Shown here piece after piece: positions 8,923-64,000 of a stretch of DNA of 64,000 bases. This stretch comes from Eledone cirrhosa. Its lineage: Eukaryota. The translations under genes were made by a program, and so were the position numbers. The first letter of the stretch is position 1. Each line of letters begins with the position of its first letter. Under the pieces are notes generated by a model. That model was given only the letters and a program-made list of their open reading frames with translations, made no database searches and was not told the origin of the DNA. Location: contig OZ024742.1 of the NCBI GenBank assembly GCA_964016885.1, positions 60,512,001 to 60,576,000 of the forward strand, written 5' to 3'.

Positions 8923-10622
8923 CGGAGGAAATGTGGTAAGGAACCAGGTGGACCATAACGTACCACAGTACTCAATACTTAGGGTAGTAGAGTGGGTAAT
9001 AGGAACGAGTAGAACCCCGACGGCTGAGCTCAAGCCGTTTCGACGGCTAATTCTGGACTAATTCTGTAAATGCTTGATTGTTCGTTCCAGTTTTAGTTTA
9101 GTCCGAAGTTTAGTGCATTAAGTAGAGGTTGGAATTTGTTAATGAAATACGTTTCCTTATTGGTACGATGGATGAAAGTAGCGTGTCTATGAATTTGTAA
9201 ATAGGGAAAATTTTAAAGTTTGGATGTTGGTTGGGTGCACAATTGGCGATATGTTCACTAAATGCAAACTTTCTGTATTCCTGTATTTTGATTTGTGATT
9301 TATGGACGCTCATACGTTGTCGGAGGCTGTTTTTGTCTATCCTTTGTTGTGTTCTTGACAACCTGAGCAGGTCAAAACATAGATTAGATTTTCAGATGGA
9401 CATGTAAAGTTGTGTTTAACTGTGAAATGTTGTCTTGTTTAAAATGGAATGTTGAACCTTCTATTAGATTTATGCATATGCCACAGTTGGGCCTTCCGCA
9501 TTTTGTTACTGTAGGGTTCATTGTGAGGGTTTGTTGGATTTTGGCTCGTGTGAGGATGTTTTTTATGGATTTAGTTTGTCTTTTGCTCTTTATGATGTTG
9601 TGTGTTTGAAGGATTTTGCTCATTCTTGGGTCTCTTTTTAGTAAAGGAATGTTCTGGAGGATGGTGTTAATGCCTCATTGTTGAGGGGGTTGTGTGTGGA
9701 GATGTATGGTAGAGTTTTCTGTTGCGGTTCATTCCTGGGTTTGGGGTGTCTGAGTTCCTGGATGTCGAGTTTTAGGGCACGTTGGAATCCATTGTTGATT
9801 AGGGATGGTGGGTAGTTTCTGCTGATAAGTGTGTTTTATAATTCTTCTAGTCGTGTGTAGCATGTGTATTTATCTGAAACTATTGTGCAGATCCTTCTGG
9901 CTGGGTTATAAGGAATTGCCATTTTGGTGTGTCTAGGGTGGCACGAGTTGAATGGAAGGTATTGTTTGGAGTCTGTGGGTTTGTAGTATATGTCTGTTTC
10001 TATTTTGTCGTTTGTTTTCTTGATGAGGATGTCGAGGAAAGGGAGTTGTTCATGGCTGTAATCCATTGTGAATTGTAAGTTAGTGTTGGGCCCATTCAGA
10101 AGGGTTTTGAACTCAAACAGTCTATCTATACTTTCATGCCAGAGGATGAAGCAGTCGTCTAGATATCTCTTCCAGTTCTTTTCTATGTGTTGGTAGAAGT
10201 GGTTGCCGTATTTGTCTAGAACTTTGCGGAAGAGAGTGGTTTCCAAATATCCCATCACAATTTGGCGTATGAGGGGTTACTTTCGTGCCCATGGCATTCC
10301 CAGATTTCTGTCTGTAGTATTTGGCATTGAATTCGAAGAAATTGTTTTCCAAGATGAATTTGAGTCCCTCCAACACAAATTCTTTAGGGATGCGCTGTGG
10401 GAGTTCACTAGGGAAATTTTCAAGCCAGAATTGTATTGCCTCTATACCTAGGTAGTGTGGGATATTGGAATATAAATTGATGACATCAAAGTAGGTTATG
10501 TTCATTATTGAGTGTTGTTGGGAGGTGGTTGAGCATGCCAAGGTCGTCCCTTATGAAGATTTTATGTGTTTTAGGAAAGGTTTAAGCAGAATATCTAGGA
10601 AGTTGCTTAGGCGGTGGGTTTC
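8921..10622 (-). mobile_element. 5'-truncated, frameshifted Penelope-like element (Neptune-like): RT, GIY-YIG and tail
   Basis: FDVINLYSNIPH, YRQKSGNAMGT, WKRYLDDCF, LPFLDILI, YYKPTDSKQYL..SCHPRH, KCGRPNCGIC, LRQRMSVH..FSEH. Flanked by TA/CA microsatellites. Confidence 0.9.
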
Positions 10623-18430: not shown

Positions 18431-19152
18431 CTGAAGCAAAGTAAATGTTTTTTTTTCTTTTCAAACTCGCTGTTTGTGCTACAGTTAATAGTAATCCAGT
18501 ATGACCTGTTGCATGATCGGATGAATTCTGATTAACCCTGAAACAGACTAAGCGTGCTTGGATAAGGTGGTAACACTAAGAAAGCATTTACATATAATAG
18601 AGGTGTATATGAAGACATATATATTATACATATATAAAAACATATTGTAGCCTCATTGTAAAAAACAACATTATTTAACGAAACGAAAACGAAACCAAGC
18701 CTAAAAAAATATGTTTTTCTGTGTTCTTCTATCAATATATCATATTCAAACAACACTGTTTCCAGATTCGTAACTCACTCAGAACATACTGGCATATACA
18801 CATCTATTACGCATAAACGATGTCTTCGTGCTACCGCGAATTAAGTAGAAGAAACCAAGCTCGCGCTCTATGCAAATGATCAGTTGCAGTAGATGTCTTC
18901 TATTTGCTATATACAAAGGAGCATCCCCAGTAAATGATCCTCACCAAAATACTAACTACTATTCTATGCCAATATGTTCTGACTAAGTGTCACTGATGAA
19001 AGATTAATAAAGCACGAAACATCATTGTCTGATATTCTGACAACTTTATGATATATTCATAGAGCAAAATAGTGAAACATGTTTTTCGCTACGAATATGC
19101 TACCAATAGATTTTTTTGTATATAAACGTATTATATATGTCTTCATAAGTAA

Positions 19153-19234
<82 letters not shown>

Positions 19235-19485
19235 GTATATATATATATACACCAAAAGAGAGCAATATATAGTATATAAATATCATGAGAGTCTATGATC
19301 ACTCAATGAAAGAATTGTAGCTAAAACACGAAGACCAGGGATACGTTGTCCATAGCAAATATCGTACAAATATCTTTGCAAAATGTATGACAAAAGAGTG
19401 TAGACAAAATATCCAATAAATAATAATGATAAACCTGAAGTTTTTCTTTAATGAAATTGGCAAATGACCCTCCTCAAAATACAAC

Positions 19486-19560
<75 letters not shown>

Positions 19561-19565
<5 letters not shown>

Positions 19566-22500
19566 AATATAGACATAGAATATTCGAAAATATTCTGTAT
19601 ATTTATAATAAACATTTTGAAGACCTAATCGCTATAGAATAGAATACGTCACGTATTACAATTAGATTCTCGATAAAAGCAAGGGAAGTAATCTACGCGT
19701 TTCATTCTTATTAGAAATCTTCAGGACTACATATCCAGTGCTTTTATCGAGAATGACACAGCTAGAGACTTATAGAATACTTAGCTGTGTACAGGAACTG
19801 GTTTGAAAGAGCGGTTGCCGGTCCGGCAGAAATTAGAAATTGGAATAAATGCTCTGAAATAGCGATATATATGTGAATATAGACATAGAATATTCGAAAA
19901 TATTCTGTATATTTATAATAAACATTTTGAAGACCTAATCGCTATAGAATAGAATACGTCACGTATTACAATTAGATTCTCGATAAAAGCAAGGGAAGTA
20001 ATCTACGCGTTTCATTCTTATTAGAAATCTTCAGGACTACATATCCAGTGCTTTTATCGAGAATGACACAGCTAGAGACTTATAGAATACTTAGCTGTGT
20101 ACAGGAACTGGTTTGAAAGAGCGGTTGCCGGTCCGGCAGAAATTAGAAATTGGAATAAATGCTCTGAAATAGCGATATATATGTGAATATAGACATAGAA
20201 TATTCGAAAATATTCTGTATATTTATAATAAACATTTTGAAGACCTAATCGCTATAGAATAGAATACGTCACGTATTACAATTAGATTCTCGATAAAAGC
20301 AAGGGAAGTAATCTACGCGTTTCATTCTTATTAGAAATCTTCAGGACTACATATCCAGTGCTTTTATCGAGAATGACACAGCTAGAGACTTATAGAATAC
20401 TTAGCTGTGTACAGGAACTGGTTTGAAAGAGCGGTTGCCGGTCCGGCAGAAATTAGAAATTGGAATAAATGCTCTGAAATAGCGATATATATGTGAATAT
20501 AGACATAGAATATTCGAAAATATTCTGTATATTTATAATAAACATTTTGAAGACCTAATCGCTATAGAATAGAATACGTCACGTATTACAATTAGATTCT
20601 CGATAAAAGCAAGGGAAGTAATCTACGCGTTTCATTCTTATTAGAAATCTTCAGGACTACATATCCAGTGCTTTTATCGAGAATGACACAGCTAGAGACT
20701 TATAGAATACTTAGCTGTGTACAGGAACTGGTTTGAAAGAGCGGTTGCCGGTCCGGCAGAAATTAGAAATTGGAATAAATGCTCTGAAATAGCGATATAT
20801 ATGTGAATATAGATATAGAATATTCGAAAATATTCTGTATATTTATAATAAACATTTTGAAGACCTAATCGCTATAGAATAGAATACGTCACGTATTACA
20901 ATTAGATTCTCGATAAAAGCAAGGGAAGTAATCTACGCGTTTCATTCTTATTAGAAATCTTCAGGACTACATATCCAGTGCTTTTATCGAGAATGACACA
21001 GCTAGAGACTTATAGAATACTTAGCTGTGTACAGGAACTGGTTTGAAAGAGCGGTTGCCGGTCCGGCAGAAATTAGAAATTGGAATAAATGCTCTGAAAT
21101 AGCGATATATATGTGAATATAGACATAGAATATTCGAAAATATTCTGTATATTTATAATAAACATTTTGAAGACCTAATCGCTATAGAATAGAATACGTC
21201 ACGTATTACAATTAGATTCTCGATAAAAGCAAGGGAAGTAATCTACGCGTTTCATTCTTATTAGAAATCTTCAGGACTACATATCCAGTGCTTTTATCGA
21301 GAATGACACAGCTAGAGACTTATAGAATACTTAGCTGTGTACAGGAACTGGTTTGAAAGAGCGGTTGCCGGTCCGGCAGAAATTAGAAATTGGAATAAAT
21401 GCTCTGAAATAGCGATATATATGTGAATATAGACATAGAATATTCGAAAATATTCTGTATATTTATAATAAACATTTTGAAGACCTAATCGCTATAGAAT
21501 AGAATACGTCACGTATTACAATTAGATTCTCGATAAAAGCAAGGGAAGTAATCTACGCGTTTCATTCTTATTAGAAATCTTCAGGACTACATATCCAGTG
21601 CTTTTATCGAGAATGACACAGCTAGAGACTTATAGAATACTTAGCTGTGTACAGGAACTGGTTTGAAAGAGCGGTTGCCGGTCCGGCAGAAATTAGAAAT
21701 TGGAATAAATGCTCTGAAATAGCGATATATATGTGAATATAGACATAGAATATTCGAAAATATTCTGTATATTTATAATAAACATTTTGAAGACCTAATC
21801 GCTATAGAATAGAATACGTCACGTATTACAATTAGATTCTCGATAAAAGCAAGGGAAGTAATCTACGCGTTTCATTCTTATTAGAAATCTTCAGGACTAC
21901 ATATCCAGTGCTTTTATCGAGAATGACACAGCTAGAGACTTATAGAATACTTAGCTGTGTACAGGAACTGGTTTGAAAGAGCGGTTGCCGGTCCGGCAGA
22001 AATTAGAAATTGGAATAAATGCTCTGAAATAGCGATATATATGTGAATATAGACATAGAATATTCGAAAATATTCTGTATATTTATAATAAACATTTTGA
22101 AGACCTAATCGCTATAGAATAGAATACGTCACGTATTACAATTAGATTCTTGATAAAAGCAAGGGAAGTAATCTACGCGTTTCATTCTTATTAGAAATCT
22201 TCAGGACTACATATCCAGTGCTTTTATCGAGAATGACACAGCTAGAGACTTATAGAATACTTAGCTGTGTACAGGAACTGGTTTGAAAGAGCGGTTGCCG
22301 GTCCGGCAGAAATTAGAAATTGGAATAAATGCTCTGAAATAGCGATATATATGTGAATATAGACATAGAATATTCGAAAATATTCTGTATATTTATAATA
22401 AACATTTTGAAGACCTAATCGCTATAGAATAGAATACGTCACGTATTACAATTAGATTCTCGATAAAAGCAAGGGAAGTAATCTACGCGTTTCATTCTTA

Positions 22501-25500
22501 TTAGAAATCTTCAGGACTACATATCCAGTGCTTTTATCGAGAATGACACAGCTAGAGACTTATAGAATACTTAGCTGTGTACAGGAACTGGTTTGAAAGA
22601 GCGGTTGCCGGTCCGGCAGAAATTAGAAATTGGAATAAATGCTCTGAAATAGCGATATATATGTGAATATAGACATAGAATATTCGAAAATATTCTGTAT
22701 ATTTATAATAAACATTTTGAAGACCTAATCGCTATAGAATAGAATACGTCACGTATTACAATTAGATTCTCGATAAAAGCAAGGGAAGTAATCTACGCGT
22801 TTCATTCTTATTAGAAATCTTCAGGACTACATATCCAGTGCTTTTATCGAGAATGACACAGCTAGAGACTTATAGAATACTTAGCTGTGTACAGGAATTG
22901 TTTGAAAGAGCGGTTGCCGGTCCGGCAGAAATTAGAAATTGGAATAAATGCTCTGAAATAGCGATATATATGTGAATATAGACATAGAATATTCGAAAAT
23001 ATTCTGTATATTTATAATAAACATTTTGAAGACCTAATCGCTATAGAATAGAATACGTCACGTATTACAATTAGATTCTCGATAAAAGCAAGGGAAGTAA
23101 TCTACGCGTTTCATTCTTATTAGAAATCTTCAGGACTACATATCCAGTGCTTTTATCGAGAATGACACAGCTAGAGACTTATAGAATACTTAGCTGTGTA
23201 CAGGAACTGGTTTGAAAGAGCGGTTGCCGGTCCGGCAGAAATTAGAAATTGGAATAAATGCTCTGAAATAGCGATATATATGTGAATATAGACATAGAAT
23301 ATTCGAAAATATTCTGTATATTTATAATAAACATTTTGAAGACCTAATCGCTATAGAATAGAATACGTCACGTATTACAATTAGATTCTCGATAAAAGCA
23401 AGGGAAGTAATCTACGCGTTTCATTCTTATTAGAAATCTTCAGGACTACATATCCAGTGCTTTTATCGAGAATGACACAGCTAGAGACTTATAGAATACT
23501 TAGCTGTGTATAGGAGCTGGTTTGAAAGAGCGGTTGCCGGTCCGGCAGAAATTAGAAATTGGAATAAATGCTCTGAAATAGCGATATATATGTGAATATA
23601 GACATAGAATATTCGAAAATATTCTGTATATTTATAATAAACATTTTGAAGACATAATCGCTATAGAATAGAATACGTCACGTATTACAATTAGATTCTC
23701 GATAAAAGCAAGGGAAGTAATCTACGCGTTTCATTCTTATTAGAAATCTTCAGGACTACATATCCAGTGCTTTTATCGAGAATGACACAGCTAGAGACTT
23801 ATAGAATACTTAGCTGTGTACAGGAACTGGTTTGAAAGAGCGGTTGCCGGTCCGGCAGAAATTAGAAATTGGAATAAATGCTCTGAAATAGCGATATATA
23901 TGTGAATATAGACATAGAATATTCGAAAATATTCTGTATATTTATAATAAACATTTTGAAGACCTAATCGCTATAGAATAGAATACGTCACGTATTACAA
24001 TTAGATTCTCGATAAAAGCAAGGGAAGTAATCTACGCGTTTCATTCTTATTAGAAATCTTCAGGACTACATATCCAGTGCTTTTATCGAGAATGACACAG
24101 CTAGAGACTTATAGAATACTTAGCTGTGTACAGGAACTGGTTTGAAAGAGCGGTTGCCGGTCCGGCAGAAATTAGAAATTGGAATAAATGCTCTGAAATA
24201 GCGATATATATGTGAATATAGACATAGAATATTCGAAAATATTCTGTATATTTATAATAAACATTTTGAAGACCTAATCGCTATAGAATAGAATACGTCA
24301 CGTATTACAATTAGATTCTCGATAAAAGCAAGGGAAGTAATCTACGCGTTTCATTCTTATTAGAAATCTTCAGGACTACATATCCAGTGCTTTTATCGAG
24401 AATGACACAGCTAGAGACTTATAGAATACTTAGCTGTGTACAGGAACTGGTTTGAAAGAGCGGTTGCCGGTCCGGCAGAAATTAGAAATTGGAATAAATG
24501 CTCTGAAATAGCGATATATATGTGAATATAGACATAGAATATTCGAAAATATTCTGTATATTTATAATAAACATTTTGAAGACCTAATCGCTATAGAATA
24601 GAATACGTCACGTATTACAATTAGATTCTCGATAAAAGCAAGGGAAGTAATCTACGCGTTTCATTCTTATTAGAAATCTTCAGGACTACATATCCAGTGC
24701 TTTTATCGAGAATGACACAGCTAGAGACTTATAGAATACTTAGCTGTGTACAGGAACTGGTTTGAAAGAGCGGTTGCCGGTCCGGCAGAAATTAGAAATT
24801 GGAATAAATGCTCTGAAATAGCGATATATATGTGAATATAGACATAGAATATTCGAAAATATTCTGTATATTTATAATAAACATTTTGAAGACCTAATCG
24901 CTATAGAATAGAATACGTCACGTATTACAATTAGATTCTCGATAAAAGCAAGGGAAGTAATCTACGCGTTTCATTCTTATTAGAAATCTTCAGGACTACA
25001 TATCCAGTGCTTTTATCGAGAATGACACAGCTAGAGACTTATAGAATACTTAGCTGTGTACAGGAACTGGTTTGAAAGAGCGGTTGCCGGTCCGGCAGAA
25101 ATTAGAAATTGGAATAAATGCTCTGAAATAGCGATATATATGTGAATATAGACATAGAATATTCGAAAATATTCTGTATATTTATAATAAACATTTTGAA
25201 GACCTAATCGCTATAGAATAGAATACGTCACGTATTACAATTAGATTCTCGATAAAAGCAAGGGAAGTAATCTACGCGTTTCATTCTTATTAGAAATCTT
25301 CAGGACTACATATCCAGTGCTTTTATCGAGAATGACACAGCTAGAGACTTATAGAATACTTAGCTGTGTACAGGAACTGGTTTGAAAGAGCGGTTGCCGG
25401 TCCGGCAGAAATTAGAAATTGGAATAAATGCTCTGAAATAGCGATATATATGTGAATATAGACATAGAATATTCGAAAATATTCTGTATATTTATAATAA

Positions 25501-28500
25501 ACATTTTGAAGACCTAATCGCTATAGAATAGAATACGTCACGTATTACAATTAGATTCTCGATAAAAGCAAGGGAAGTAATCTACGCGTTTCATTCTTAT
25601 TAGAAATCTTCAGGACTACATATCCAGTGCTTTTATCGAGAATGACACAGCTAGAGACTTATAGAATACTTAGCTGTGTACAGGAGCTGGTTTGAAAGAG
25701 CGGTTGCCGGTCCGGCAGAAATTAGAAATTGGAATAAATGCTCTGAAATAGCGATATATATGTGAATATAGACATAGAATATTCGAAAATATTCTGTATA
25801 TTTATAATAAACATTTTGAAGACCTAATCGCTATAGAATAGAATACGTCACGTATTACAATTAGATTCTCGATAAAAGCAAGGGAAGTAATCTACGCGTT
25901 TCATTCTTATTAGAAATCTTCAGGACTACATATCCAGTGCTTTTATCGAGAATGACACAGCTAGAGACTTATAGAATACTTAGCTGTGTACAGGAACTGG
26001 TTTGAAAGAGCGGTTGCCGGTCCGGCAGAAATTAGAAATTGGAATAAATGCTCTGAAATAGCGATATATATGTGAATATAGACATAGAATATTCGAAAAT
26101 ATTCTGTATATTTATAATAAACATTTTGAAGACCTAATCGCTATAGAATAGAATACGTCACGTATTACAATTAGATTCTCGATAAAAGCAAGGGAAGTAA
26201 TCTACGCGTTTCATTCTTATTAGAAATCTTCAGGACTACATATCCAGTGCTTTTATCGAGAATGACACAGCTAGAGACTTATAGAATACTTAGCTGTGTA
26301 CAGGAACTGGTTTGAAAGAGCGGTTGCCGGTCCGGCAGAAATTAGAAATTGGAATAAATGCTCTGAAATAGCGATATATATGTGAATATAGACATAGAAT
26401 ATTCGAAAATATTCTGTATATTTATAATAAACATTTTGAAGACCTAATCGCTATAGAATAGAATACGTCACGTATTACAATTAGATTCTCGATAAAAGCA
26501 AGGGAAGTAATCTACGCGTTTCATTCTTATTAGAAATCTTCAGGACTACATATCCAGTGCTTTTATCGAGAATGACACAGCTAGAGACTTATAGAATACT
26601 TAGCTGTGTACAGGAACTGGTTTGAAAGAGCGGTTGCCGGTCCGGCAGAAATTAGAAATTGGAATAAATGCTCTGAAATAGCGATATATATGTGAATATA
26701 GACATAGAATATTCGAAAATATTCTGTATATTTATAATAAACATTTTGAAGACCTAATCGCTATAGAATAGAATACGTCACGTATTACAATTAGATTCTC
26801 GATAAAAGCAAGGGAAGTAATCTACGCGTTTCATTCTTATTAGAAATCTTCAGGACTACATATCCAGTGCTTTTATCGAGAATGACACAGCTAGAGACTT
26901 ATAGAATACTTAGCTGTGTACAGGAACTGGTTTGAAAGAGCGGTTGCCGGTCCGGCAGAAATTAGAAATTGGAATAAATGCTCTGAAATAGCGATATATA
27001 TGTGAATATAGACATAGAATATTCGAAAATATTCTGTATATTTATAATAAACATTTTGAAGACCTAATCGCTATAGAATAGAATACGTCACGTATTACAA
27101 TTAGATTCTCGATAAAAGCAAGGGAAGTAATCTACGCGTTTCATTCTTATTAGAAATCTTCAGGACTACATATCCAGTGCTTTTATCGAGAATGACACAG
27201 CTAGAGACTTATAGAATACTTAGCTGTGTACAGGAACTGGTTTGAAAGAGCGGTTGCCGGTCCGGCAGAAATTAGAAATTGGAATAAATGCTCTGAAATA
27301 GCGATATATATGTGAATATAGACATAGAATATTCGAAAATATTCTGTATATTTATAATAAACATTTTGAAGACCTAATCGCTATAGAATAGAATACGTCA
27401 CGTATTACAATTAGATTCTCGATAAAAGCAAGGGAAGTAATCTACGCGTTTCATTCTTATTAGAAATCTTCAGGACTACATATCCAGTGCTTTTATCGAG
27501 AATGACACAGCTAGAGACTTATAGAATACTTAGCTGTGTACAGGAACTGGTTTGAAAGAGCGGTTGCCGGTCCGGCAGAAATTAGAAATTGGAATAAATG
27601 CTCTGAAATAGCGATATATATGTGAATATAGACATAGAATATTCGAAAATATTCTGTATATTTATAATAAACATTTTGAAGACCTAATCGCTATAGAATA
27701 GAATACGTCACGTATTACAATTAGATTCTTGATAAAAGCAAGGGAAGTAATCTACGCGTTTCATTCTTATTAGAAATCTTCAGGACTACATATCCAGTGC
27801 TTTTATCGAGAATGACACAGCTAGAGACTTATAGAATACTTAGCTGTGTACAGGAACTGGTTTGAAAGAGCGGTTGCCGGTCCGGCAGAAATTAGAAATT
27901 GGAATAAATGCTCTGAAATAGCGATATATATGTGAATATAGACATAGAATATTCGAAAATATTCTGTATATTTATAATAAACATTTTGAAGACCTAATCG
28001 CTATAGAATAGAATACGTCACGTATTACAATTAGATTCTCGATAAAAGCAAGGGAAGTAATCTACGCGTTTCATTCTTATTAGAAATCTTCAGGACTACA
28101 TATCCAGTGCTTTTATCGAGAATGACACAGCTAGAGACTTATAGAATACTTAGCTGTGTACAGGAACTGGTTTGAAAGAGCGGTTGCCGGTCCGGCAGAA
28201 ATTAGAAATTGGAATAAATGCTCTGAAATAGCGATATATATGTGAATATAGACATAGAATATTCGAAAATATTCTGTATATTTATAATAAACATTTTGAA
28301 GACCTAATCGCTATAGAATAGAATACGTCACGTATTACAATTAGATTCTCGATAAAAGCAAGGGAAGTAATCTACGCGTTTCATTCTTATTAGAAATCTT
28401 CAGGACTACATATCCAGTGCTTTTATCGAGAATGACACAGCTAGAGACTTATAGAATACTTAGCTGTGTACAGGAACTGGTTTGAAAGAGCGGTTGCCGG

Positions 28501-31500
28501 TCCGGCAGAAATTAGAAATTGGAATAAATGCTCTGAAATAGCGATATATATGTGAATATAGACATAGAATATTCGAAAATATTCTGTATATTTATAATAA
28601 ACATTTTGAAGACCTAATCGCTATAGAATAGAATACGTCACGTATTACAATTAGATTCTCGATAAAAGCAAGGGAAGTAATCTACGCGTTTCATTCTTAT
28701 TAGAAATCTTCAGGACTACATATCCAGTGCTTTTATCGAGAATGACACAGCTAGAGACTTATAGAATACTTAGCTGTGTACAGGAACTGGTTTGAAAGAG
28801 CGGTTGCCGGTCCGGCAGAAATTAGAAATTGGAATAAATGCTCTGAAATAGCGATATATATGTGAATATAGACATAGAATATTCGAAAATATTCTGTATA
28901 TTTATAATAAACATTTTGAAGACCTAATCGCTATAGAATAGAATACGTCACGTATTACAATTAGATTCTCGATAAAAGCAAGGGAAGTAATCTACGCGTT
29001 TCATTCTTATTAGAAATCTTCAGGACTACATATCCAGTGCTTTTATCGAGAATGACACAGCTAGAGACTTATAGAATACTTAGCTGTGTATAGGAGCTGG
29101 TTTGAAAGAGCGGTTGCCGGTCCGGCAGAAATTAGAAATTGGAATAAATGCTCTGAAATAGCGATATATATGTGAATATAGACATAGAATATTCGAAAAT
29201 ATTCTGTATATTTATAATAAACATTTTGAAGACATAATCGCTATAGAATAGAATACGTCACGTATTACAATTAGATTCTCGATAAAAGCAAGGGAAGTAA
29301 TCTACGCGTTTCATTCTTATTAGAAATCTTCAGGACTACATATCCAGTGCTTTTATCGAGAATGACACAGCTAGAGACTTATAGAATACTTAGCTGTGTA
29401 CAGGAACTGGTTTGAAAGAGCGGTTGCCGGTCCGGCAGAAATTAGAAATTGGAATAAATGCTCTGAAATAGCGATATATATGTGAATATAGACATAGAAT
29501 ATTCGAAAATATTCTGTATATTTATAATAAACATTTTGAAGACCTAATCGCTATAGAATAGAATACGTCACGTATTACAATTAGATTCTCGATAAAAGCA
29601 AGGGAAGTAATCTACGCGTTTCATTCTTATTAGAAATCTTCAGGACTACATATCCAGTGCTTTTATCGAGAATGACACAGCTAGAGACTTATAGAATACT
29701 TAGCTGTGTACAGGAACTGGTTTGAAAGAGCGGTTGCCGGTCCGGCAGAAATTAGAAATTGGAATAAATGCTCTGAAATAGCGATATATATGTGAATATA
29801 GACATAGAATATTCGAAAATATTCTGTATATTTATAATAAACATTTTGAAGACCTAATCGCTATAGAATAGAATACGTCACGTATTACAATTAGATTCTC
29901 GATAAAAGCAAGGGAAGTAATCTACGCGTTTCATTCTTATTAGAAATCTTCAGGACTACATATCCAGTGCTTTTATCGAGAATGACACAGCTAGAGACTT
30001 ATAGAATACTTAGCTGTGTACAGGAACTGGTTTGAAAGAGCGGTTGCCGGTCCGGCAGAAATTAGAAATTGGAATAAATGCTCTGAAATAGCGATATATA
30101 TGTGAATATAGACATAGAATATTCGAAAATATTCTGTATATTTATAATAAACATTTTGAAGACCTAATCGCTATAGAATAGAATACGTCACGTATTACAA
30201 TTAGATTCTCGATAAAAGCAAGGGAAGTAATCTACGCGTTTCATTCTTATTAGAAATCTTCAGGACTACATATCCAGTGCTTTTATCGAGAATGACACAG
30301 CTAGAGACTTATAGAATACTTAGCTGTGTACAGGAACTGGTTTGAAAGAGCGGTTGCCGGTCCGGCAGAAATTAGAAATTGGAATAAATGCTCTGAAATA
30401 GCGATATATATGTGAATATAGACATAGAATATTCGAAAATATTCTGTATATTTATAATAAACATTTTGAAGACCTAATCGCTATAGAATAGAATACGTCA
30501 CGTATTACAATTAGATTCTCGATAAAAGCAAGGGAAGTAATCTACGCGTTTCATTCTTATTAGAAATCTTCAGGACTACATATCCAGTGCTTTTATCGAG
30601 AATGACACAGCTAGAGACTTATAGAATACTTAGCTGTGTACAGGAACTGGTTTGAAAGAGCGGTTGCCGGTCCGGCAGAAATTAGAAATTGGAATAAATG
30701 CTCTGAAATAGCGATATATATGTGAATATAGACATAGAATATTCGAAAATATTCTGTATATTTATAATAAACATTTTGAAGACCTAATCGCTATAGAATA
30801 GAATACGTCACGTATTACAATTAGATTCTCGATAAAAGCAAGGGAAGTAATCTACGCGTTTCATTCTTATTAGAAATCTTCAGGACTACATATCCAGTGC
30901 TTTTATCGAGAATGACACAGCTAGAGACTTATAGAATACTTAGCTGTGTACAGGAACTGGTTTGAAAGAGCGGTTGCCGGTCCGGCAGAAATTAGAAATT
31001 GGAATAAATGCTCTGAAATAGCGATATATATGTGAATATAGACATAGAATATTCGAAAATATTCTGTATATTTATAATAAACATTTTGAAGACCTAATCG
31101 CTATAGAATAGAATACGTCACGTATTACAATTAGATTCTCGATAAAAGCAAGGGAAGTAATCTACGCGTTTCATTCTTATTAGAAATCTTCAGGACTACA
31201 TATCCAGTGCTTTTATCGAGAATGACACAGCTAGAGACTTATAGAATACTTAGCTGTGTACAGGAGCTGGTTTGAAAGAGCGGTTGCCGGTCCGGCAGAA
31301 ATTAGAAATTGGAATAAATGCTCTGAAATAGCGATATATATGTGAATATAGACATAGAATATTCGAAAATATTCTGTATATTTATAATAAACATTTTGAA
31401 GACCTAATCGCTATAGAATAGAATACGTCACGTATTACAATTAGATTCTCGATAAAAGCAAGGGAAGTAATCTACGCGTTTCATTCTTATTAGAAATCTT

Positions 31501-34500
31501 CAGGACTACATATCCAGTGCTTTTATCGAGAATGACACAGCTAGAGACTTATAGAATACTTAGCTGTGTACAGGAACTGGTTTGAAAGAGCGGTTGCCGG
31601 TCCGGCAGAAATTAGAAATTGGAATAAATGCTCTGAAATAGCGATATATATGTGAATATAGACATAGAATATTCGAAAATATTCTGTATATTTATAATAA
31701 ACATTTTGAAGACCTAATCGCTATAGAATAGAATACGTCACGTATTACAATTAGATTCTCGATAAAAGCAAGGGAAGTAATCTACGCGTTTCATTCTTAT
31801 TAGAAATCTTCAGGACTACATATCCAGTGCTTTTATCGAGAATGACACAGCTAGAGACTTATAGAATACTTAGCTGTGTACAGGAACTGGTTTGAAAGAG
31901 CGGTTGCCGGTCCGGCAGAAATTAGAAATTGGAATAAATGCTCTGAAATAGCGATATATATGTGAATATAGACATAGAATATTCGAAAATATTCTGTATA
32001 TTTATAATAAACATTTTGAAGACCTAATCGCTATAGAATAGAATACGTCACGTATTACAATTAGATTCTCGATAAAAGCAAGGGAAGTAATCTACGCGTT
32101 TCATTCTTATTAGAAATCTTCAGGACTACATATCCAGTGCTTTTATCGAGAATGACACAGCTAGAGACTTATAGAATACTTAGCTGTGTACAGGAACTGG
32201 TTTGAAAGAGCGGTTGCCGGTCCGGCAGAAATTAGAAATTGGAATAAATGCTCTGAAATAGCGATATATATGTGAATATAGACATAGAATATTCGAAAAT
32301 ATTCTGTATATTTATAATAAACATTTTGAAGACCTAATCGCTATAGAATAGAATACGTCACGTATTACAATTAGATTCTCGATAAAAGCAAGGGAAGTAA
32401 TCTACGCGTTTCATTCTTATTAGAAATCTTCAGGACTACATATCCAGTGCTTTTATCGAGAATGACACAGCTAGAGACTTATAGAATACTTAGCTGTGTA
32501 CAGGAACTGGTTTGAAAGAGCGGTTGCCGGTCCGGCAGAAATTAGAAATTGGAATAAATGCTCTGAAATAGCGATATATATGTGAATATAGACATAGAAT
32601 ATTCGAAAATATTCTGTATATTTATAATAAACATTTTGAAGACCTAATCGCTATAGAATAGAATACGTCACGTATTACAATTAGATTCTCGATAAAAGCA
32701 AGGGAAGTAATCTACGCGTTTCATTCTTATTAGAAATCTTCAGGACTACATATCCAGTGCTTTTATCGAGAATGACACAGCTAGAGACTTATAGAATACT
32801 TAGCTGTGTACAGGAACTGGTTTGAAAGAGCGGTTGCCGGTCCGGCAGAAATTAGAAATTGGAATAAATGCTCTGAAATAGCGATATATATGTGAATATA
32901 GACATAGAATATTCGAAAATATTCTGTATATTTATAATAAACATTTTGAAGACCTAATCGCTATAGAATAGAATACGTCACGTATTACAATTAGATTCTC
33001 GATAAAAGCAAGGGAAGTAATCTACGCGTTTCATTCTTATTAGAAATCTTCAGGACTACATATCCAGTGCTTTTATCGAGAATGACACAGCTAGAGACTT
33101 ATAGAATACTTAGCTGTGTACAGGAACTGGTTTGAAAGAGCGGTTGCCGGTCCGGCAGAAATTAGAAATTGGAATAAATGCTCTGAAATAGCGATATATA
33201 TGTGAATATAGACATAGAATATTCGAAAATATTCTGTATATTTATAATAAACATTTTGAAGACCTAATCGCTATAGAATAGAATACGTCACGTATTACAA
33301 TTAGATTCTCGATAAAAGCAAGGGAAGTAATCTACGCGTTTCATTCTTATTAGAAATCTTCAGGACTACATATCCAGTGCTTTTATCGAGAATGACACAG
33401 CTAGAGACTTATAGAATACTTAGCTGTGTACAGGAACTGGTTTGAAAGAGCGGTTGCCGGTCCGGCAGAAATTAGAAATTGGAATAAATGCTCTGAAATA
33501 GCGATATATATGTGAATATAGACATAGAATATTCGAAAATATTCTGTATATTTATAATAAACATTTTGAAGACCTAATCGCTATAGAATAGAATACGTCA
33601 CGTATTACAATTAGATTCTCGATAAAAGCAAGGGAAGTAATCTACGCGTTTCATTCTTATTAGAAATCTTCAGGACTACATATCCAGTGCTTTTATCGAG
33701 AATGACACAGCTAGAGACTTATAGAATACTTAGCTGTGTACAGGAGCTGGTTTGAAAGAGCGGTTGCCGGTCCGGCAGAAATTAGAAATTGGAATAAATG
33801 CTCTGAAATAGCGATATATATGTGAATATAGACATAGAATATTCGAAAATATTCTGTATATTTATAATAAACATTTTGAAGACCTAATCGCTATAGAATA
33901 GAATACGTCACGTATTACAATTAGATTCTCGATAAAAGCAAGGGAAGTAATCTACGCGTTTCATTCTTATTAGAAATCTTCAGGACTACATATCCAGTGC
34001 TTTTATCGAGAATGACACAGCTAGAGACTTATAGAATACTTAGCTGTGTACAGGAACTGGTTTGAAAGAGCGGTTGCCGGTCCGGCAGAAATTAGAAATT
34101 GGAATAAATGCTCTGAAATAGCGATATATATGTGAATATAGACATAGAATATTCGAAAATATTCTGTATATTTATAATAAACATTTTGAAGACCTAATCG
34201 CTATAGAATAGAATACGTCACGTATTACAATTAGATTCTCGATAAAAGCAAGGGAAGTAATCTACGCGTTTCATTCTTATTAGAAATCTTCAGGACTACA
34301 TATCCAGTGCTTTTATCGAGAATGACACAGCTAGAGACTTATAGAATACTTAGCTGTGTACAGGAACTGGTTTGAAAGAGCGGTTGCCGGTCCGGCAGAA
34401 ATTAGAAATTGGAATAAATGCTCTGAAATAGCGATATATATGTGAATATAGACATAGAATATTCGAAAATATTCTGTATATTTATAATAAACATTTTGAA

Positions 34501-36483
34501 GACCTAATCGCTATAGAATAGAATACGTCACGTATTACAATTAGATTCTCGATAAAAGCAAGGGAAGTAATCTACGCGTTTCATTCTTATTAGAAATCTT
34601 CAGGACTACATATCCAGTGCTTTTATCGAGAATGACACAGCTAGAGACTTATAGAATACTTAGCTGTGTACAGGAACTGGTTTGAAAGAGCGGTTGCCGG
34701 TCCGGCAGAAATTAGAAATTGGAATAAATGCTCTGAAATAGCGATATATATGTGAATATAGACATAGAATATTCGAAAATATTCTGTATATTTATAATAA
34801 ACATTTTGAAGACCTAATCGCTATAGAATAGAATACGTCACGTATTACAATTAGATTCTCGATAAAAGCAAGGGAAGTAATCTACGCGTTTCATTCTTAT
34901 TAGAAATCTTCAGGACTACATATCCAGTGCTTTTATCGAGAATGACACAGCTAGAGACTTATAGAATACTTAGCTGTGTACAGGAACTGGTTTGAAAGAG
35001 CGGTTGCCGGTCCGGCAGAAATTAGAAATTGGAATAAATGCTCTGAAATAGCGATATATATGTGAATATAGACATAGAATATTCGAAAATATTCTGTATA
35101 TTTATAATAAACATTTTGAAGACCTAATCGCTATAGAATAGAATACGTCACGTATTACAATTAGATTCTCGATAAAAGCAAGGGAAGTAATCTACGCGTT
35201 TCATTCTTATTAGAAATCTTCAGGACTACATATCCAGTGCTTTTATCGAGAATGACACAGCTAGAGACTTATAGAATACTTAGCTGTGTACAGGAACTGG
35301 TTTGAAAGAGCGGTTGCCGGTCCGGCAGAAATTAGAAATTGGAATAAATGCTCTGAAATAGCGATATATATGTGAATATAGACATAGAATATTCGAAAAT
35401 ATTCTGTATATTTATAATAAACATTTTGAAGACCTAATCGCTATAGAATAGAATACGTCACGTATTACAATTAGATTCTCGATAAAAGCAAGGGAAGTAA
35501 TCTACGCGTTTCATTCTTATTAGAAATCTTCAGGACTACATATCCAGTGCTTTTATCGAGAATGACACAGCTAGAGACTTATAGAATACTTAGCTGTGTA
35601 CAGGAACTGGTTTGAAAGAGCGGTTGCCGGTCCGGCAGAAATTAGAAATTGGAATAAATGCTCTGAAATAGCGATATATATGTGAATATAGACATAGAAT
35701 ATTCGAAAATATTCTGTATATTTATAATAAACATTTTGAAGACCTAATCGCTATAGAATAGAATACGTCACGTATTACAATTAGATTCTCGATAAAAGCA
35801 AGGGAAGTAATCTACGCGTTTCATTCTTATTAGAAATCTTCAGGACTACATATCCAGTGCTTTTATCGAGAATGACACAGCTAGAGACTTATAGAATACT
35901 TAGCTGTGTACAGGAACTGGTTTGAAAGAGCGGTTGCCGGTCCGGCAGAAATTAGAAATTGGAATAAATGCTCTGAAATAGCGATATATATGTGAATATA
36001 GACATAGAATATTCGAAAATATTCTGTATATTTATAATAAACATTTTGAAGACCTAATCGCTATAGAATAGAATACGTCACGTATTACAATTAGATTCTC
36101 GATAAAAGCAAGGGAAGTAATCTACGCGTTTCATTCTTATTAGAAATCTTCAGGACTACATATCCAGTGCTTTTATCGAGAATGACACAGCTAGAGACTT
36201 ATAGAATACTTAGCTGTGTACAGGAACTGGTTTGAAAGAGCGGTTGCCGGTCCGGCAGAAATTAGAAATTGGAATAAATGCTCTGAAATAGCGATATATA
36301 TGTGAATATAGACATAGAATATTCGAAAATATTCTGTATATTTATAATAAACATTTTGAAGACCTAATCGCTATAGAATAGAATACGTCACGTATTACAA
36401 TTAGATTCTCGATAAAAGCAAGGGAAGTAATCTACGCGTTTCATTCTTATTAGAAATCTTCAGGACTACATATCCAGTGCTTT
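19561..36483 (-). repeat. Tandem array of a 310-bp unit (54 full plus 1 partial), hammerhead-bearing satellite / non-LTR retrozyme
   Basis: Unit starts at 19561, 19871, 20181 and so on. One 309-bp unit (1-bp deletion near 22898); last start at 36300. Units differ at only a handful of positions. Each has an HHR on minus. Both ends abut (TA)n. Confidence 0.95.
19688..19730 (-). ncRNA. Type I minimal hammerhead ribozyme, first of 55 copies (last at 36427-36469)
   Basis: Minus: GUAGUC-CUGAAGA-U UUCU AAUA AGAA U-GAA ACGCGU A^GAUUAC. 6-bp stem I, 4-bp stem II, palindromic stem III. Predicted cleavage between 19694 and 19693. Stem I is extended by GGA/UCC and a perfect 16-bp IR (19666-19681/19739-19754). 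Confidence 0.9.
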
Positions 36484-36536
36484 ATATATATAAACAATTG
36501 TTCTCGGTATGGTGAACTAACTGTTGTGATACTAAT

Positions 36537-36605
<69 letters not shown>

Positions 36606-36632
36606 GGAAGTAGTATCACAACAGTTAGTTCA

Positions 36633-36688
36633 CCATACCGAGAACAATTGTTTCACCTTAGCGGATCTTCAGCTCGGACTGGTCATGG
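36633..36688 (-). ncRNA. Type I hammerhead ribozyme in inverted pLTR (GUU triplet)
   Basis: Minus: ccatg accagt CCGAG-CTGAAGA-t cc gctaa gg t-GAA ACAATTGT T-CTCGG tatgg. Confidence 0.8.
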
Positions 36689-38104
36689 ATAAACGGAACA
36701 GGAAGAACAACCGTACGTACGCGCATGCGCATATCCAGGCACTTCACCCAAGCGATACAAAGCCACGGGCGAAAGGTGTAAGGGAGATAACTGCGAAAGT
36801 TCTGAAAAGATGTTCGAGTTGAATAGAAAATTAGAATGTTGTTGTTATTCAATCCAGAGCTTTGTAGTTATGCAAGAGGTGTTTCTAGACATGTGGACAA
36901 CGGGAGAAGATTTCATATCTTGAATTTAGGCAATCGGTATTGCGTATTCTCCTTAGAATATTTATTATTATATTATTATATTATTATATTTCTTCAATAA
37001 ACAGTCCGCAAGACGGATTGCCCGCCCCTTGCGTATGGCTTGGACTTGGTGATGACTTTCCATTGAATGGAATAGTCTATACCTGAGTCCTTGGGGGACC
37101 ATACGAGTCTCACGAGTTTCGTGGATGATCGTTTTTCCGGATACCTAAAGGTCGACTGATGGTTCAGGAAGCGTTCCTTAAATCGGCCCTCCGCTATACT
37201 CACATAGCATTTGACCTCCGGCGTCAGCTAACAGCGGCTTCTCACAACCAAATACTTACTCCCCCACTAACAACAACAGCAATAAAAAAAGAAATCGTAA
37301 CATTAGACAAACTATCTTGTTCTCTCCTTCCTTCTCAACCAACGTTAAAACTAATGTAGGAAAAAGATTTTTAGCCCTCTTAGATACACACTTTCCCATA
37401 CGTCATAAATACCGCTCCATCTTTAACAGACACAGAGTAAAACAAGGGTATCCCTGTGATATGAAGGCCCACATAACCAACAATCCTAAGAGAGGCACCC
37501 CACCAGGATGCTCTTGCCGAAAGCCAGAAGATTGTCCCCTTCAACAGCAATGCAACGTACCCGCTGTAGTTTATGAAGCTGTGGTTTCCAACCGACCAAA
37601 CCGACCACAGGAGGTCAAATACTCTGTGGGTATGGCAGAGGGCCGATTTAAGGAACACTTCCTGAACCATCAGTCGACCTTTAGGTACCCGGACAAACGA
37701 TCATCCACGAAACTCGCGAGCCATGTATGGTCCCTCAAGGACTCAGGTGTAGATTACTCCATTCAATAGAAAGCCATCACTAAGTCCAAGCCATACGCAA
37801 GGGGCAATCGGTCTTGTGGACTGTGTATTGAAGAAAGGATAAATATTCTAAGGAGATTACGCAATAGCGATTGCTTAAATTCAAGATTTGAAATCTTCTC
37901 ACGTTGTCCACATGTCTGGAAACACCTCTTGCATAACTACAAAGCTCCGGATTGAATAACAACATTCTAATCAACTCGAACATCTTTTCCGGACTTTCGC
38001 AATTACCTCCTTTATGCATTTCGCCCGTGGCTTTGTATCGCTTGGGTGAAATGACCGTTTCTGTGTATGCGCGATCGTACGGTTGTTCTTCTTGTTCCGT
38101 TTAA

Positions 38105-38160
38105 CCATGACCAGTCCGAGCTGAAGATCCGCTAAGATGAAACAATTATTTTGGGTATGG
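38105..38160 (+). ncRNA. Mutated copy of the same PLE hammerhead in the 3' pLTR
   Basis: ccgag-CTGAAGA-tccgctaagat-GAAACAATTATT-ttggg. Stems II, III and I carry substitutions. Confidence 0.65.
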
Positions 38161-38247
38161 AAAACTAACTGTTGTGTTACTACTTCTACTAAAACTCGTC
38201 CCATGGACTGAGTTCTCTACCACTACGGATATTACCTTCCAGTGTTC

Positions 38248-38345
<98 letters not shown>

Positions 38346-62059: not shown

Positions 62060-64000
62060 ATTGTTATACTTTGGGAGGGTCATATTTGTGTAATAATATT
62101 GCCAGAATTAATAAAGAGAACACACTCACTGTTTGGTTGGTTTTCGCTTCTGTGTCTTTTATATTAGTTAATTTAATTTATTCGGTCCCCAATGTTACCA
62201 TTGACTGACCAACGGTCAAAAATACAAATATAATATAGACACAAACACATATATATAGTCTAACAAAGTTCTTTCGTTGCACATCTGCAACATCGTCAGT
62301 GGTGCTATTATGTTTCCTCCCGTTGTATTGTATGCCTACGCCTTCTTTATTTAGTCTGTTCATTTATTTATTTATTTATTTATTTTTGCCTGTGTGTATT
62401 GTGTTTGAGTGACTGTGTATTGGTTATTGTATTCTATCTTAGTTTACTAGTGTGTGTTTATATATGTTTGTTGTTATTGTGCTTTTGTATGTATTTATTT
62501 ATTTTATTTATTTATTTAAACTTATCTTAGGTCAGTATTGTTTGTTTGGGTGTTGTTGTTATTCCATTCATTTTTTCTGTTTAGCCTTGGCCTTCTAAGA
62601 TCTATTTCGCTGGCCTCTCTGATTTGCATATTTGCTGGGTCATTTCTATGTTTAGATATTATTTTAATTTCTATGTTGTCTATGTTACCGTCGTGTTATT
62701 GTCTGACATGTTCGTATAGTACTGAACCGTTTTTTCTTCCTTTTAGTTCCCCCCAGTGTTGGTCTATCCTTTCACCTATACTACGAGCTGTCTCGCCTAT
62801 GTACGTTGTTGTCATGTTTCTGCAAGTAACCTCTGTATATCTTATGCTGTAGACTACGTTTCTAGTCTTACAGTTTATCTGGGGGTTTACTTTACATATA
62901 ATACATTTCCTATTAGTACAGTGGGTTTTCTTAAAAGGGTAGGTTTTGCTGATCAGGGATTTTATGGTGGTACCTGGCTTTTCTACCACCTTAATCTTTA
63001 AGTGGGTCTTTCTCAGGAGGGCATTTCTACACTGGTTAGCTAATTTCCCTCCAGGGGTAGCGTCCACAAACATGACACTCTGGTATCTCTGGTTGTCGTA
63101 CCATGAAGTGGCTTTCCCTATCATATGTCTAGTCCTATCTAAGCTATTTCATGATTTGCTCCTGTATAATGGGCAAATTCCTTTCATGTCCAGTTCTATG
63201 AGAGTCTTATACTTCTCCGTGGCTCCTTCGTATACTCTTATTCTGTGTCTTTGGTTGTAGCCAGAGAACTGCATGTGGTTGATGAAGTGTTGGATGTGTC
63301 TTTCTATTTCTGTTGGGTGGCACATGCAGGACACGCTCTTTATCACTCGTACCAAGTCTGCGATCAGAATATTAAACTTAGCACTACTGGACATTGCTGA
63401 GTTTTAGAGTATCAGGTATTTGGAGGCCATGGGTTTAGCGTAGTGTGAGTGGAGAATTTGGGCTCTCTCGTCTATAGTGTTAATCCAGAGTTCCGTGTCT
63501 AATACAGGTAGTCTATTGTTAGGGTGTTTGGAATAGTAGTCGATAGTTACAGTTATACTCTGGTGTATGGAATTAGTTATCTGCTGCATGTTTTCCATTG
63601 TGCTACGTTCTAAATCAAACTTGTTAGTACTCTCTTGTCGGGATGTTCTTATTACTATATTGATGTCGTCTACGTAACGAGAGTACATGATGAGGTCTAT
63701 GGAGCTCTCATCAAGTAGGTATTTGAGTCTCCTTTCCCACCATTCCATAAAAAGGTTGGCAACGTCACCAGCTTTGCTGACGCCAATGGTTGCTACCTCA
63801 TTTTGGGTGTAGATCTTCTCGTTGAATTTGAATATGTGGCCCTTTAAGGTAGTTTTGATACTATCCCATATTGCATGTGCGACCATTTTTCTTACCTTAT
63901 CATTGTTTTGGGGGGTCCGTATAGCTTTGATCCACCCAATCCACCTTCCCATGGGAGTCTTTTTGCCATTGAGGTTATGGTGGGGGTCTACCTCTTATAG
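62060..64000 (-). mobile_element. Penelope-like element (RT, GIY-YIG), frameshifted, running off the window end; clade uncertain (Nematis/Neptune-like)
   Basis: IYTQNEVATIG..ANLFME, YSRYVDDI, RLPVLDTELW, HYAKPMAS, FVDATPGGKLA, CTNRKCIIC..CKTRNVVYSI..YIGETARSIGERIDQH. Confidence 0.9.

Follow-up and report, generated by a model that had tools for sequence, protein, structure and literature searches.

The stretch of Eledone cirrhosa DNA discussed here, 64,000 nucleotides long (assembly GCA_964016885.1, contig OZ024742.1, positions 60,512,001 to 60,576,000 of the forward strand; the window, in what follows), contains a tandem array whose short unit carries a hammerhead ribozyme motif, as do the repeats known in animals as retrozymes of the non-LTR type (LTR, long terminal repeat). 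Tandem Repeats Finder places the array at 19555-36483, with a period of 310 bp, 54.6 copies and 99% matches, in line with the number of near-identical units given in a preliminary description of the locus; the predicted RNA is that of the minus strand. Measured from core to core, 45 of the 54 units are identical and six distinct unit sequences occur. The unit (G+C content about 0.33) is non-coding, as that description had it, a stop-free frame of 100 amino acids being absent from the whole array. The array is a single run of units, or arm, which starts at unit position 306 (site A below) and ends at unit position 185.

Every unit has a hammerhead core on the minus strand, 55 in all, repeating every 310 bp. 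In the first of them (19666-19754, outer helix included) the order in the RNA is stem I GUAGUC, CUGAAGA (19724-19718), stem II, GAAA (19703-19700), CGCG, UA and, beyond the predicted cut, GAUUAC; stem III is formed by the palindrome ACGCGU (19700-19695), N17 falls on 19694 and cleavage is predicted at 19694/19693. The preliminary description had read the core, stems I and II, the palindrome and the cleavage position in the same way, and overlooked the U-U mismatch at the base of stem II, the outer helix of the motif and the dispersed insertions with two arms, on which the mechanism discussed further on depends. Stem II consists of 4 bp above this U-U mismatch (10.1-11.1), where a G-C pair is not present; a haplotype at unit position 158, found in 5 of 73 loci, changes it to A-U. 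Helix I has 6 bp, followed by an internal loop and a perfect 15-bp helix (19666-19680 with 19740-19754), whilst helix III has 2 bp and its palindrome could pair neighbouring units (computed duplex energy, -7.5 kcal/mol). As modelled, then, the motif is a canonical-type type I hammerhead and not a minimal one, and it departs from the minimal hammerheads of Penelope-like elements (PLEs) in the internal loop and long outer helix that extend helix I, and in its 2-bp helix III. The predicted fold of the hammerhead region is better than all of 200 shuffled sequences (z = -5.75), and that of the whole monomer better than 100 of 100 (z = -4.1). No hammerhead core was found on the plus strand, and RNA polymerase III boxes are one-mismatch matches only, with an unusable A-B spacing.

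The fold is also supported by comparison with an older sister family in the same genome, found through a 68%-identical match (about 85% identity among copies; 2,489 first-look candidates), which has a unit of about 310 nt and a helix III palindrome differing from that of the young family. When 11 young and 23 old-family rows are aligned, the predicted pairs are formed in 93.8% of the cells, compared to 37-53% in slid controls, 15 of the 31 pairs are altered on both sides, and the core pair 3-8 is C3-G8 in all 11 young rows and U3-A8 in all 23 old ones, a contrast that largely amounts to one split between two related subfamilies. It had been remarked that no unit variant falls in the core, and this is true of all seven variant sites of the array, but so few sites would miss a 16-nt core by chance about seven times in ten, and the observation therefore says little.

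Seen against the 3.0-Gb genome, in which a 32-nt core has 13,025 exact copies (control, 0), the array represents a single insertion of a family that is young and widely dispersed. The outer ends of the arms fall at two fixed sites of the unit about 30-35 nt apart, site A (unit position 5 or 306), with 676 exact outer junctions, and site B (unit position 280), with 948. Most insertions have two arms: among 16 consecutive loci on C1, 12 are two-armed, head to head in (TA)n, three are single-armed and one has an unreadable inner end. All 12 of the two-armed loci combine one A end with one B end, as do 17 of 17 two-armed loci picked by BLAST. On C1 0-284 Mb the junction pairs that face each other are A-B in 42 of 42 cases, with no A-A or B-B pair, for which the chance would be about 7e-14 if independent; three non-facing neighbour cases in that interval resolve into four further A+B insertions. 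Over 102 arms, the median length is 3.4 units, the mean 4.7 and the longest 27.3, and at 22 of 44 inner joints the two arms have an overlap of 1-6 bases. Site B matches (TA)n over two or three bases only, so that homology does not set its position; target-site duplications are not discernible within (TA)n. The older sister family uses the same A and B starts, with mostly 1.1-1.7 units per arm (e.g., L051-L070), and its clear arm pairs are A+B in six of six cases, one ambiguous locus (L048) being left out. From the counts of cores, loci and junctions, very young insertions are estimated to be on the order of 1,500-2,000.

This non-coding unit lies within 150-450 bp, with a G+C content below 50% and a hammerhead in every copy, and is dispersed at many loci of a genome in which searches for the reverse transcriptase (RT) also find PLEs. 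Its insertions have an inverted, 5′-truncated, head-to-head partner (at 12 of the 16 loci), (TA)n or AT-rich targets and a tail at one end only. At the level of sequence, therefore, this is a young, abundant non-LTR retrozyme family with the insertion signature of Penelope, and the suggestion of such a family in the preliminary description is upheld by the dispersed cores and the covarying fold. Published work describes PLEs as forming inverted 5′-truncated copies in microsatellite targets, one end bearing a tail of 30-40 bp (PMC8557442, PMC3846280). In this genome, five PLE-type families obey the same rule, with one short and one long end in 15 of 15 inverted pairs (L133 and L193, which have no inverted pair of outer ends, are left out of this count). 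The agreement between the A+B rule of the retrozyme and the end rule of the resident PLEs ties the former to the machinery of the latter, and so supports, as had been proposed, mobilisation of the family by a Penelope-like apparatus. An anole PLE protein has been reported to cut and extend both strands in vitro, with two adjacent internal start sites bounding the tail (PMC11167929).

If such an apparatus made these insertions, the arms should tell what it copied. There are 25 haplotypes among 73 loci, and both arms of a locus share them: 133 arm-fixed variants are common to the two arms, the six discordant cases concern one unit each, and even private haplotypes are shared in this way. Minority variants behave quite differently: over the 167 units that the two arms copied in common, none of 44 is mirrored between them (two loci, each of three segments, being left out). 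The arms thus appear to have been synthesised separately, each from a template that did not vary internally, and this speaks against a fold-back copy and also against a long transcript of an ordinary array. The latter deserves consideration, since the same enzyme and start sites could in principle have used a linear transcript that was long and left uncleaved, made from a source array, in which case mobility would not need the hammerhead. The arrays are indeed very homogeneous, the commonest haplotypes recur at 20, 13 and 9 of the 73 loci, and insertion of an anole PLE in vitro did not require hammerhead cleavage (PMC11167929). However, at about 0.14 minority variants per unit some 20 should have been common to both arms over the 167 units, and private alleles fixed in all units of a locus call for a monomer bottleneck, which makes a linear multimer improbable as the template.

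A template of one unit could also be the cleaved linear monomer, from whose 5′ end the RT would jump repeatedly to a 3′ end. Template jumping is known for retroelement RTs, and this route would account for one haplotype per locus, and for the RNA stage, with no ligase at all. It predicts, on the other hand, that bases are gained or lost and that arms end at the cut site, whilst the inner ends are not clustered there (2 of 102 at unit positions 134-137) and no recurrent insertion or deletion is seen at unit 134/135 in the arm listings; peaks of inner ends at unit 41 and 149-151 were dismissed as artefacts of the reference allele. Jumping on a linear monomer is accordingly held to be a shade less probable even than copying of a long transcript. 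We infer from these genomic footprints a monomer template, and a closed monomer circle would fit all of them. There is, in addition, a suggestive excess of A>G changes in the RNA sense, which make up 7 of the 22 locus-fixed changes vs 8 of 95 singletons (p = 0.008), a result that hinges on hand-made choices of polarity and whose strand asymmetry by itself (7 vs 2) is weak. Six of the seven lie in predicted helices, and the excess would fit editing of the RNA template.

A further rival is an ordinary satellite that spread as DNA, by excised circles, rolling-circle amplification and repair of breaks, with the hammerhead as an inherited relic. DNA-level turnover is real enough: there is an 18-unit duplication in the array of the window, one of seven units inside a 6-kb arm (L158), and, on C14, a composite satellite that extends over at least 55 kb (C14:25200000-25265000; L013-L026, L207, L208), consists of the retrozyme unit and microsatellite spacers, includes at least 23 uninterrupted units and is a secondary DNA-level amplification. 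Even so, spread as DNA does not predict strand-specific fixed starts, strict A+B pairing, an end rule identical to that of PLEs, a compensated core or an excess of A>G changes, and of the explanations for the family as a whole we give it the least credence, regarding it as very improbable.

The interpretation we prefer, and consider likely, is that a Penelope-type RT starts synthesis on each of the two strands at a break and copies a single monomer circle turn after turn, in rolling-circle fashion. Read-through transcripts of an array would self-cleave, probably as dimers held by the ACGCGU palindrome, and the monomers would be ligated into circles. A dimer of the PLE protein would then cut both strands of (TA)n and, on the same circle, use site A to prime one strand and site B to prime the other; the two complementary DNAs (cDNAs) would be joined head to head where they have a few bases in common. 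The fuller version, in which the insertions record a PLE dimer priming both break ends at two fixed sites, one closed and occasionally adenosine-to-inosine-edited RNA circle, and two independent rolling-circle cDNAs, asks for more at once; we lean towards it with less assurance.

Besides the qualifications attached above to the covariation and to the A>G excess, several results weigh against this interpretation. An Rfam scan of the window returned no family at gathering score, and the Hammerhead_1 match anticipated in the preliminary description did not materialise: over 18500-20300 the scan gives only Hammerhead_HH9, at 17 bits (E 0.79), below the gathering score. Stem II has a U-U base and stem III just 2 bp, and of nine predicted retrozyme dimers of Xenopus one was cleaved in vitro (10.64898/2026.07.22.740005). 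Of the 35 locus-fixed variants counted across the young family, none falls in the core vs 1.8 expected, a deficit that is not significant (p = 0.16). The second arm is missing at the very locus where the array was noticed. Finally, the unit has no similarity to the termini of the PLE families sampled, which are not all those present, and the tails of the PLE families seen are about 40-75 nt long, unlike the 30-35 nt of the retrozyme.

Published retrozyme repeats are described as carrying no motif that indicates a partner element (PMC7761336). Long open PLE frames are present in the genome, none of them linked to the retrozyme; the label PLE rests on motifs, hammerheads and structure, Pfam giving one weak RT match in eight PLE-like fragments. 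Two candidate partners were discarded. A 3.3-kb repeat with a 47-nt match turned out to be no PLE but a long interspersed nuclear element, in which short remnants of retrozymes are apparent, and a PLE RT near the C3c array was set aside, a helicase-like fragment, presumably of a Helitron-like element, lying between the two. Among the public runs listed as containing the unit, none is of RNA. Closed 340-nt contigs of the unit, one in each of three runs of other organisms (X4, X5, X6), were likewise ruled out as RNA circles or signs of horizontal spread: these runs also carry other repeats of the genome, in about the proportions of the public run X1, so that the contigs are accounted for by traces of genomic DNA in which the tandem has collapsed.

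Turning to the array itself, the (TA)n target lies at 19486-19562, and the left junction, where the cDNA would have started, blends into the unit's own ATATATAT at site A. A stretch from site B to site A (unit position 280, to 306 to 5) is found at 19839-19874 on the plus strand and is the element's counterpart of the Penelope ‘tail’. The inner end, at 36483, is followed by filler (36484-36542, plus strand) made of 9 nt of AT repeat and a 51-bp inverted copy (96%) of the end of the adjoining pseudo-LTR (pLTR), then by (TA)n again (36539-36602) and by an older 5′-truncated PLE (36603-38250, plus strand). The latter consists of an inverted pLTR with its own hammerhead and a short end (36603-36950, minus strand), an open-reading-frame remnant (37215-37955) that we take to be endonuclease-like and that has no Pfam hit, and a right pLTR with a long end. 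The 51-bp piece (36492-36542) carries a private variant of this neighbouring pLTR copy, which rules it out as a second, PLE-derived arm; as the sequence reads, it is a copy of the end of the flanking pLTR that patches the inner end of the array. Only the A arm would have survived at this locus.

The locus is atypical in this single A arm, and in a private allele at unit position 42 present in 55 of 55 units. Elsewhere in the genome this allele occurs in 12 lone units only; no other locus has it in two or more units, which excludes the array as a master locus, and a search of other loci for the private allele detected no daughters. The 54.6 units also lie in the far tail of the arm lengths given above. 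Between 21863 and 31471, four minority variants repeat at a spacing of 18 units (about 5,580 bp); one allele is present at three more widely spaced units. This recurrence means that the array was turned over as DNA or over-assembled, so the array is not the clean 55-fold copy that its unit count, itself correct, had suggested, and its length is in part due to DNA-level expansion or mis-assembly. That the assembly entered an 18-unit block twice is an explanation for this locus only, which we rate as unlikely, yet far from negligible: the offset of the four variants is exact, the length lies far out among those of the arms, and no record in the public runs, which confirm the unit and its variants in an independent read set (X1), spans it. 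The variant in unit 11 of the first block is, however, missing from the second, the duplication in the 6-kb arm is comparable, and 36.6 units would remain with the block removed. To the original synthesis we would therefore credit at most about 37 units, and possibly far fewer. The array would then result from repeated turns round one 310-nt RNA circle into (TA)n, with lengthening by DNA duplication likely to have come later.

Other repeats of the genome were seen along the way. In addition to the array, at least nine further PLE-type hammerhead-like motifs of several families, mostly with a palindromic helix III, lie in the window (at 1219, 14934, 18993, 36672, 38444, 43380, 51704, 54431 and 56649). 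The family represented at 9839-10276 shows a single type of end, and inverted pairs were not seen in it; its copies L200, L202 and L049 have a pLTR with a UUGAUAA...GAAA motif of the U3-A8 type, a palindromic helix III and a poor helix I. The PLE-like family represented at 63407-63994 (L192-L198) has open frames of 1,000-1,300 codons, in which the RT precedes an endonuclease-like end, and its hammerhead-like motif reads CUGACGA. A repeated CUGAUGA...GAAA CUAG UA motif, in pairs about 420-480 bp apart or inverted (L076, L135, L139, L031), probably marks other retrozyme families. At L083:1255-1964, a single B arm passes at its inner end into the pLTR tail of an older PLE that has the same sense, which would be either a target deletion or a template switch. 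Unrelated to these, five mollusc-type hemocyanin genes of seven well-scoring units each, three in tandem and two inverted, lie at C1:173.74-173.91 Mb and C26:21.93-22.02 Mb, with two more units on C27; seven is the octopod count.

As to the wider significance, the spread of animal ribozyme satellites through a circle and then an unspecified RT was proposed earlier, and the inverted-repeat-and-tail structure of Penelope likewise lacks an explanation in vivo. The present family offers a 310-nt template, two predicted starts and many very young insertions, by which both questions become testable. If the fuller version of the mechanism is right, it would explain the birth of animal retrozyme arrays as well as why Penelope elements carry an inverted copy and a tail at one end, and the window would record as many as about 37 turns in one run (11 kb). 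Tool makers, too, would be interested in an RT able to turn an RNA circle into tandem copies within DNA. The class itself is known, and the array is a long outlier of it, not a new class: arrays of up to 62 (coral) and 300 units are published for metazoan non-LTR retrozymes (PMC7229834; 10.64898/2026.07.22.740005), so length alone is not surprising. RNA circles have been shown in coral, mussel and axolotl, with mobilisation by PLEs proposed (PMC7229834; PMC7761336; 10.64898/2026.07.22.740005); in two of them, the copying of circles by a PLE RT is put forward as a proposal and not demonstrated (PMC7229834; 10.64898/2026.07.22.740005). Hammerhead matches are recorded for giant squid (PMC6962438), and a literature search of incomplete coverage, supplements aside, found no cephalopod retrozyme and no two-armed retrozyme insertion.

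With the published metazoan non-LTR retrozymes (PMC7229834; 10.64898/2026.07.22.740005) the family shares a non-coding tandem unit of 170-400 nt with a G+C content below 50%, a structured monomer, one type I hammerhead per unit with a weak palindromic helix III, and a genome that also contains PLEs; axolotl HHR_Amex2 likewise has a U-U at the base of its helix II. It differs from them in that they are described as direct tandem arrays, sometimes with target duplications, whereas about three quarters of the insertions here are two-armed in (TA)n with two fixed starts, and in that their RNA has been shown, whilst the E. cirrhosa family is known here from its DNA. Li et al. (10.64898/2026.07.22.740005) invoke local amplification of pLTRs, in contrast to which no pLTR homology was found here among the PLE families sampled. 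The U3-A8 covariation and palindromic helix III of Schistosoma PLE hammerheads (PMC4209133) reappear in the older sister family, where the hammerhead has a long outer helix and belongs to a non-coding unit, about 310 nt in length, and not to the pLTR of a coding element. Endonuclease-bearing PLEs (PMC11167929; PMC8557442; PMC3846280) have in common with the retrozyme their (TA)n or AT-rich targets, a head-to-head inverted 5′-truncated copy, a 30-40-bp tail at one end, two adjacent internal RT starts and the extension of both strands; unlike them, the retrozyme has no open reading frame and both of its arms are multi-copy runs of one monomer. The inversion of PLEs has been attributed to self-priming on an antisense template (PMC3846280), whereas the unmirrored variants of the retrozyme indicate two separate syntheses.

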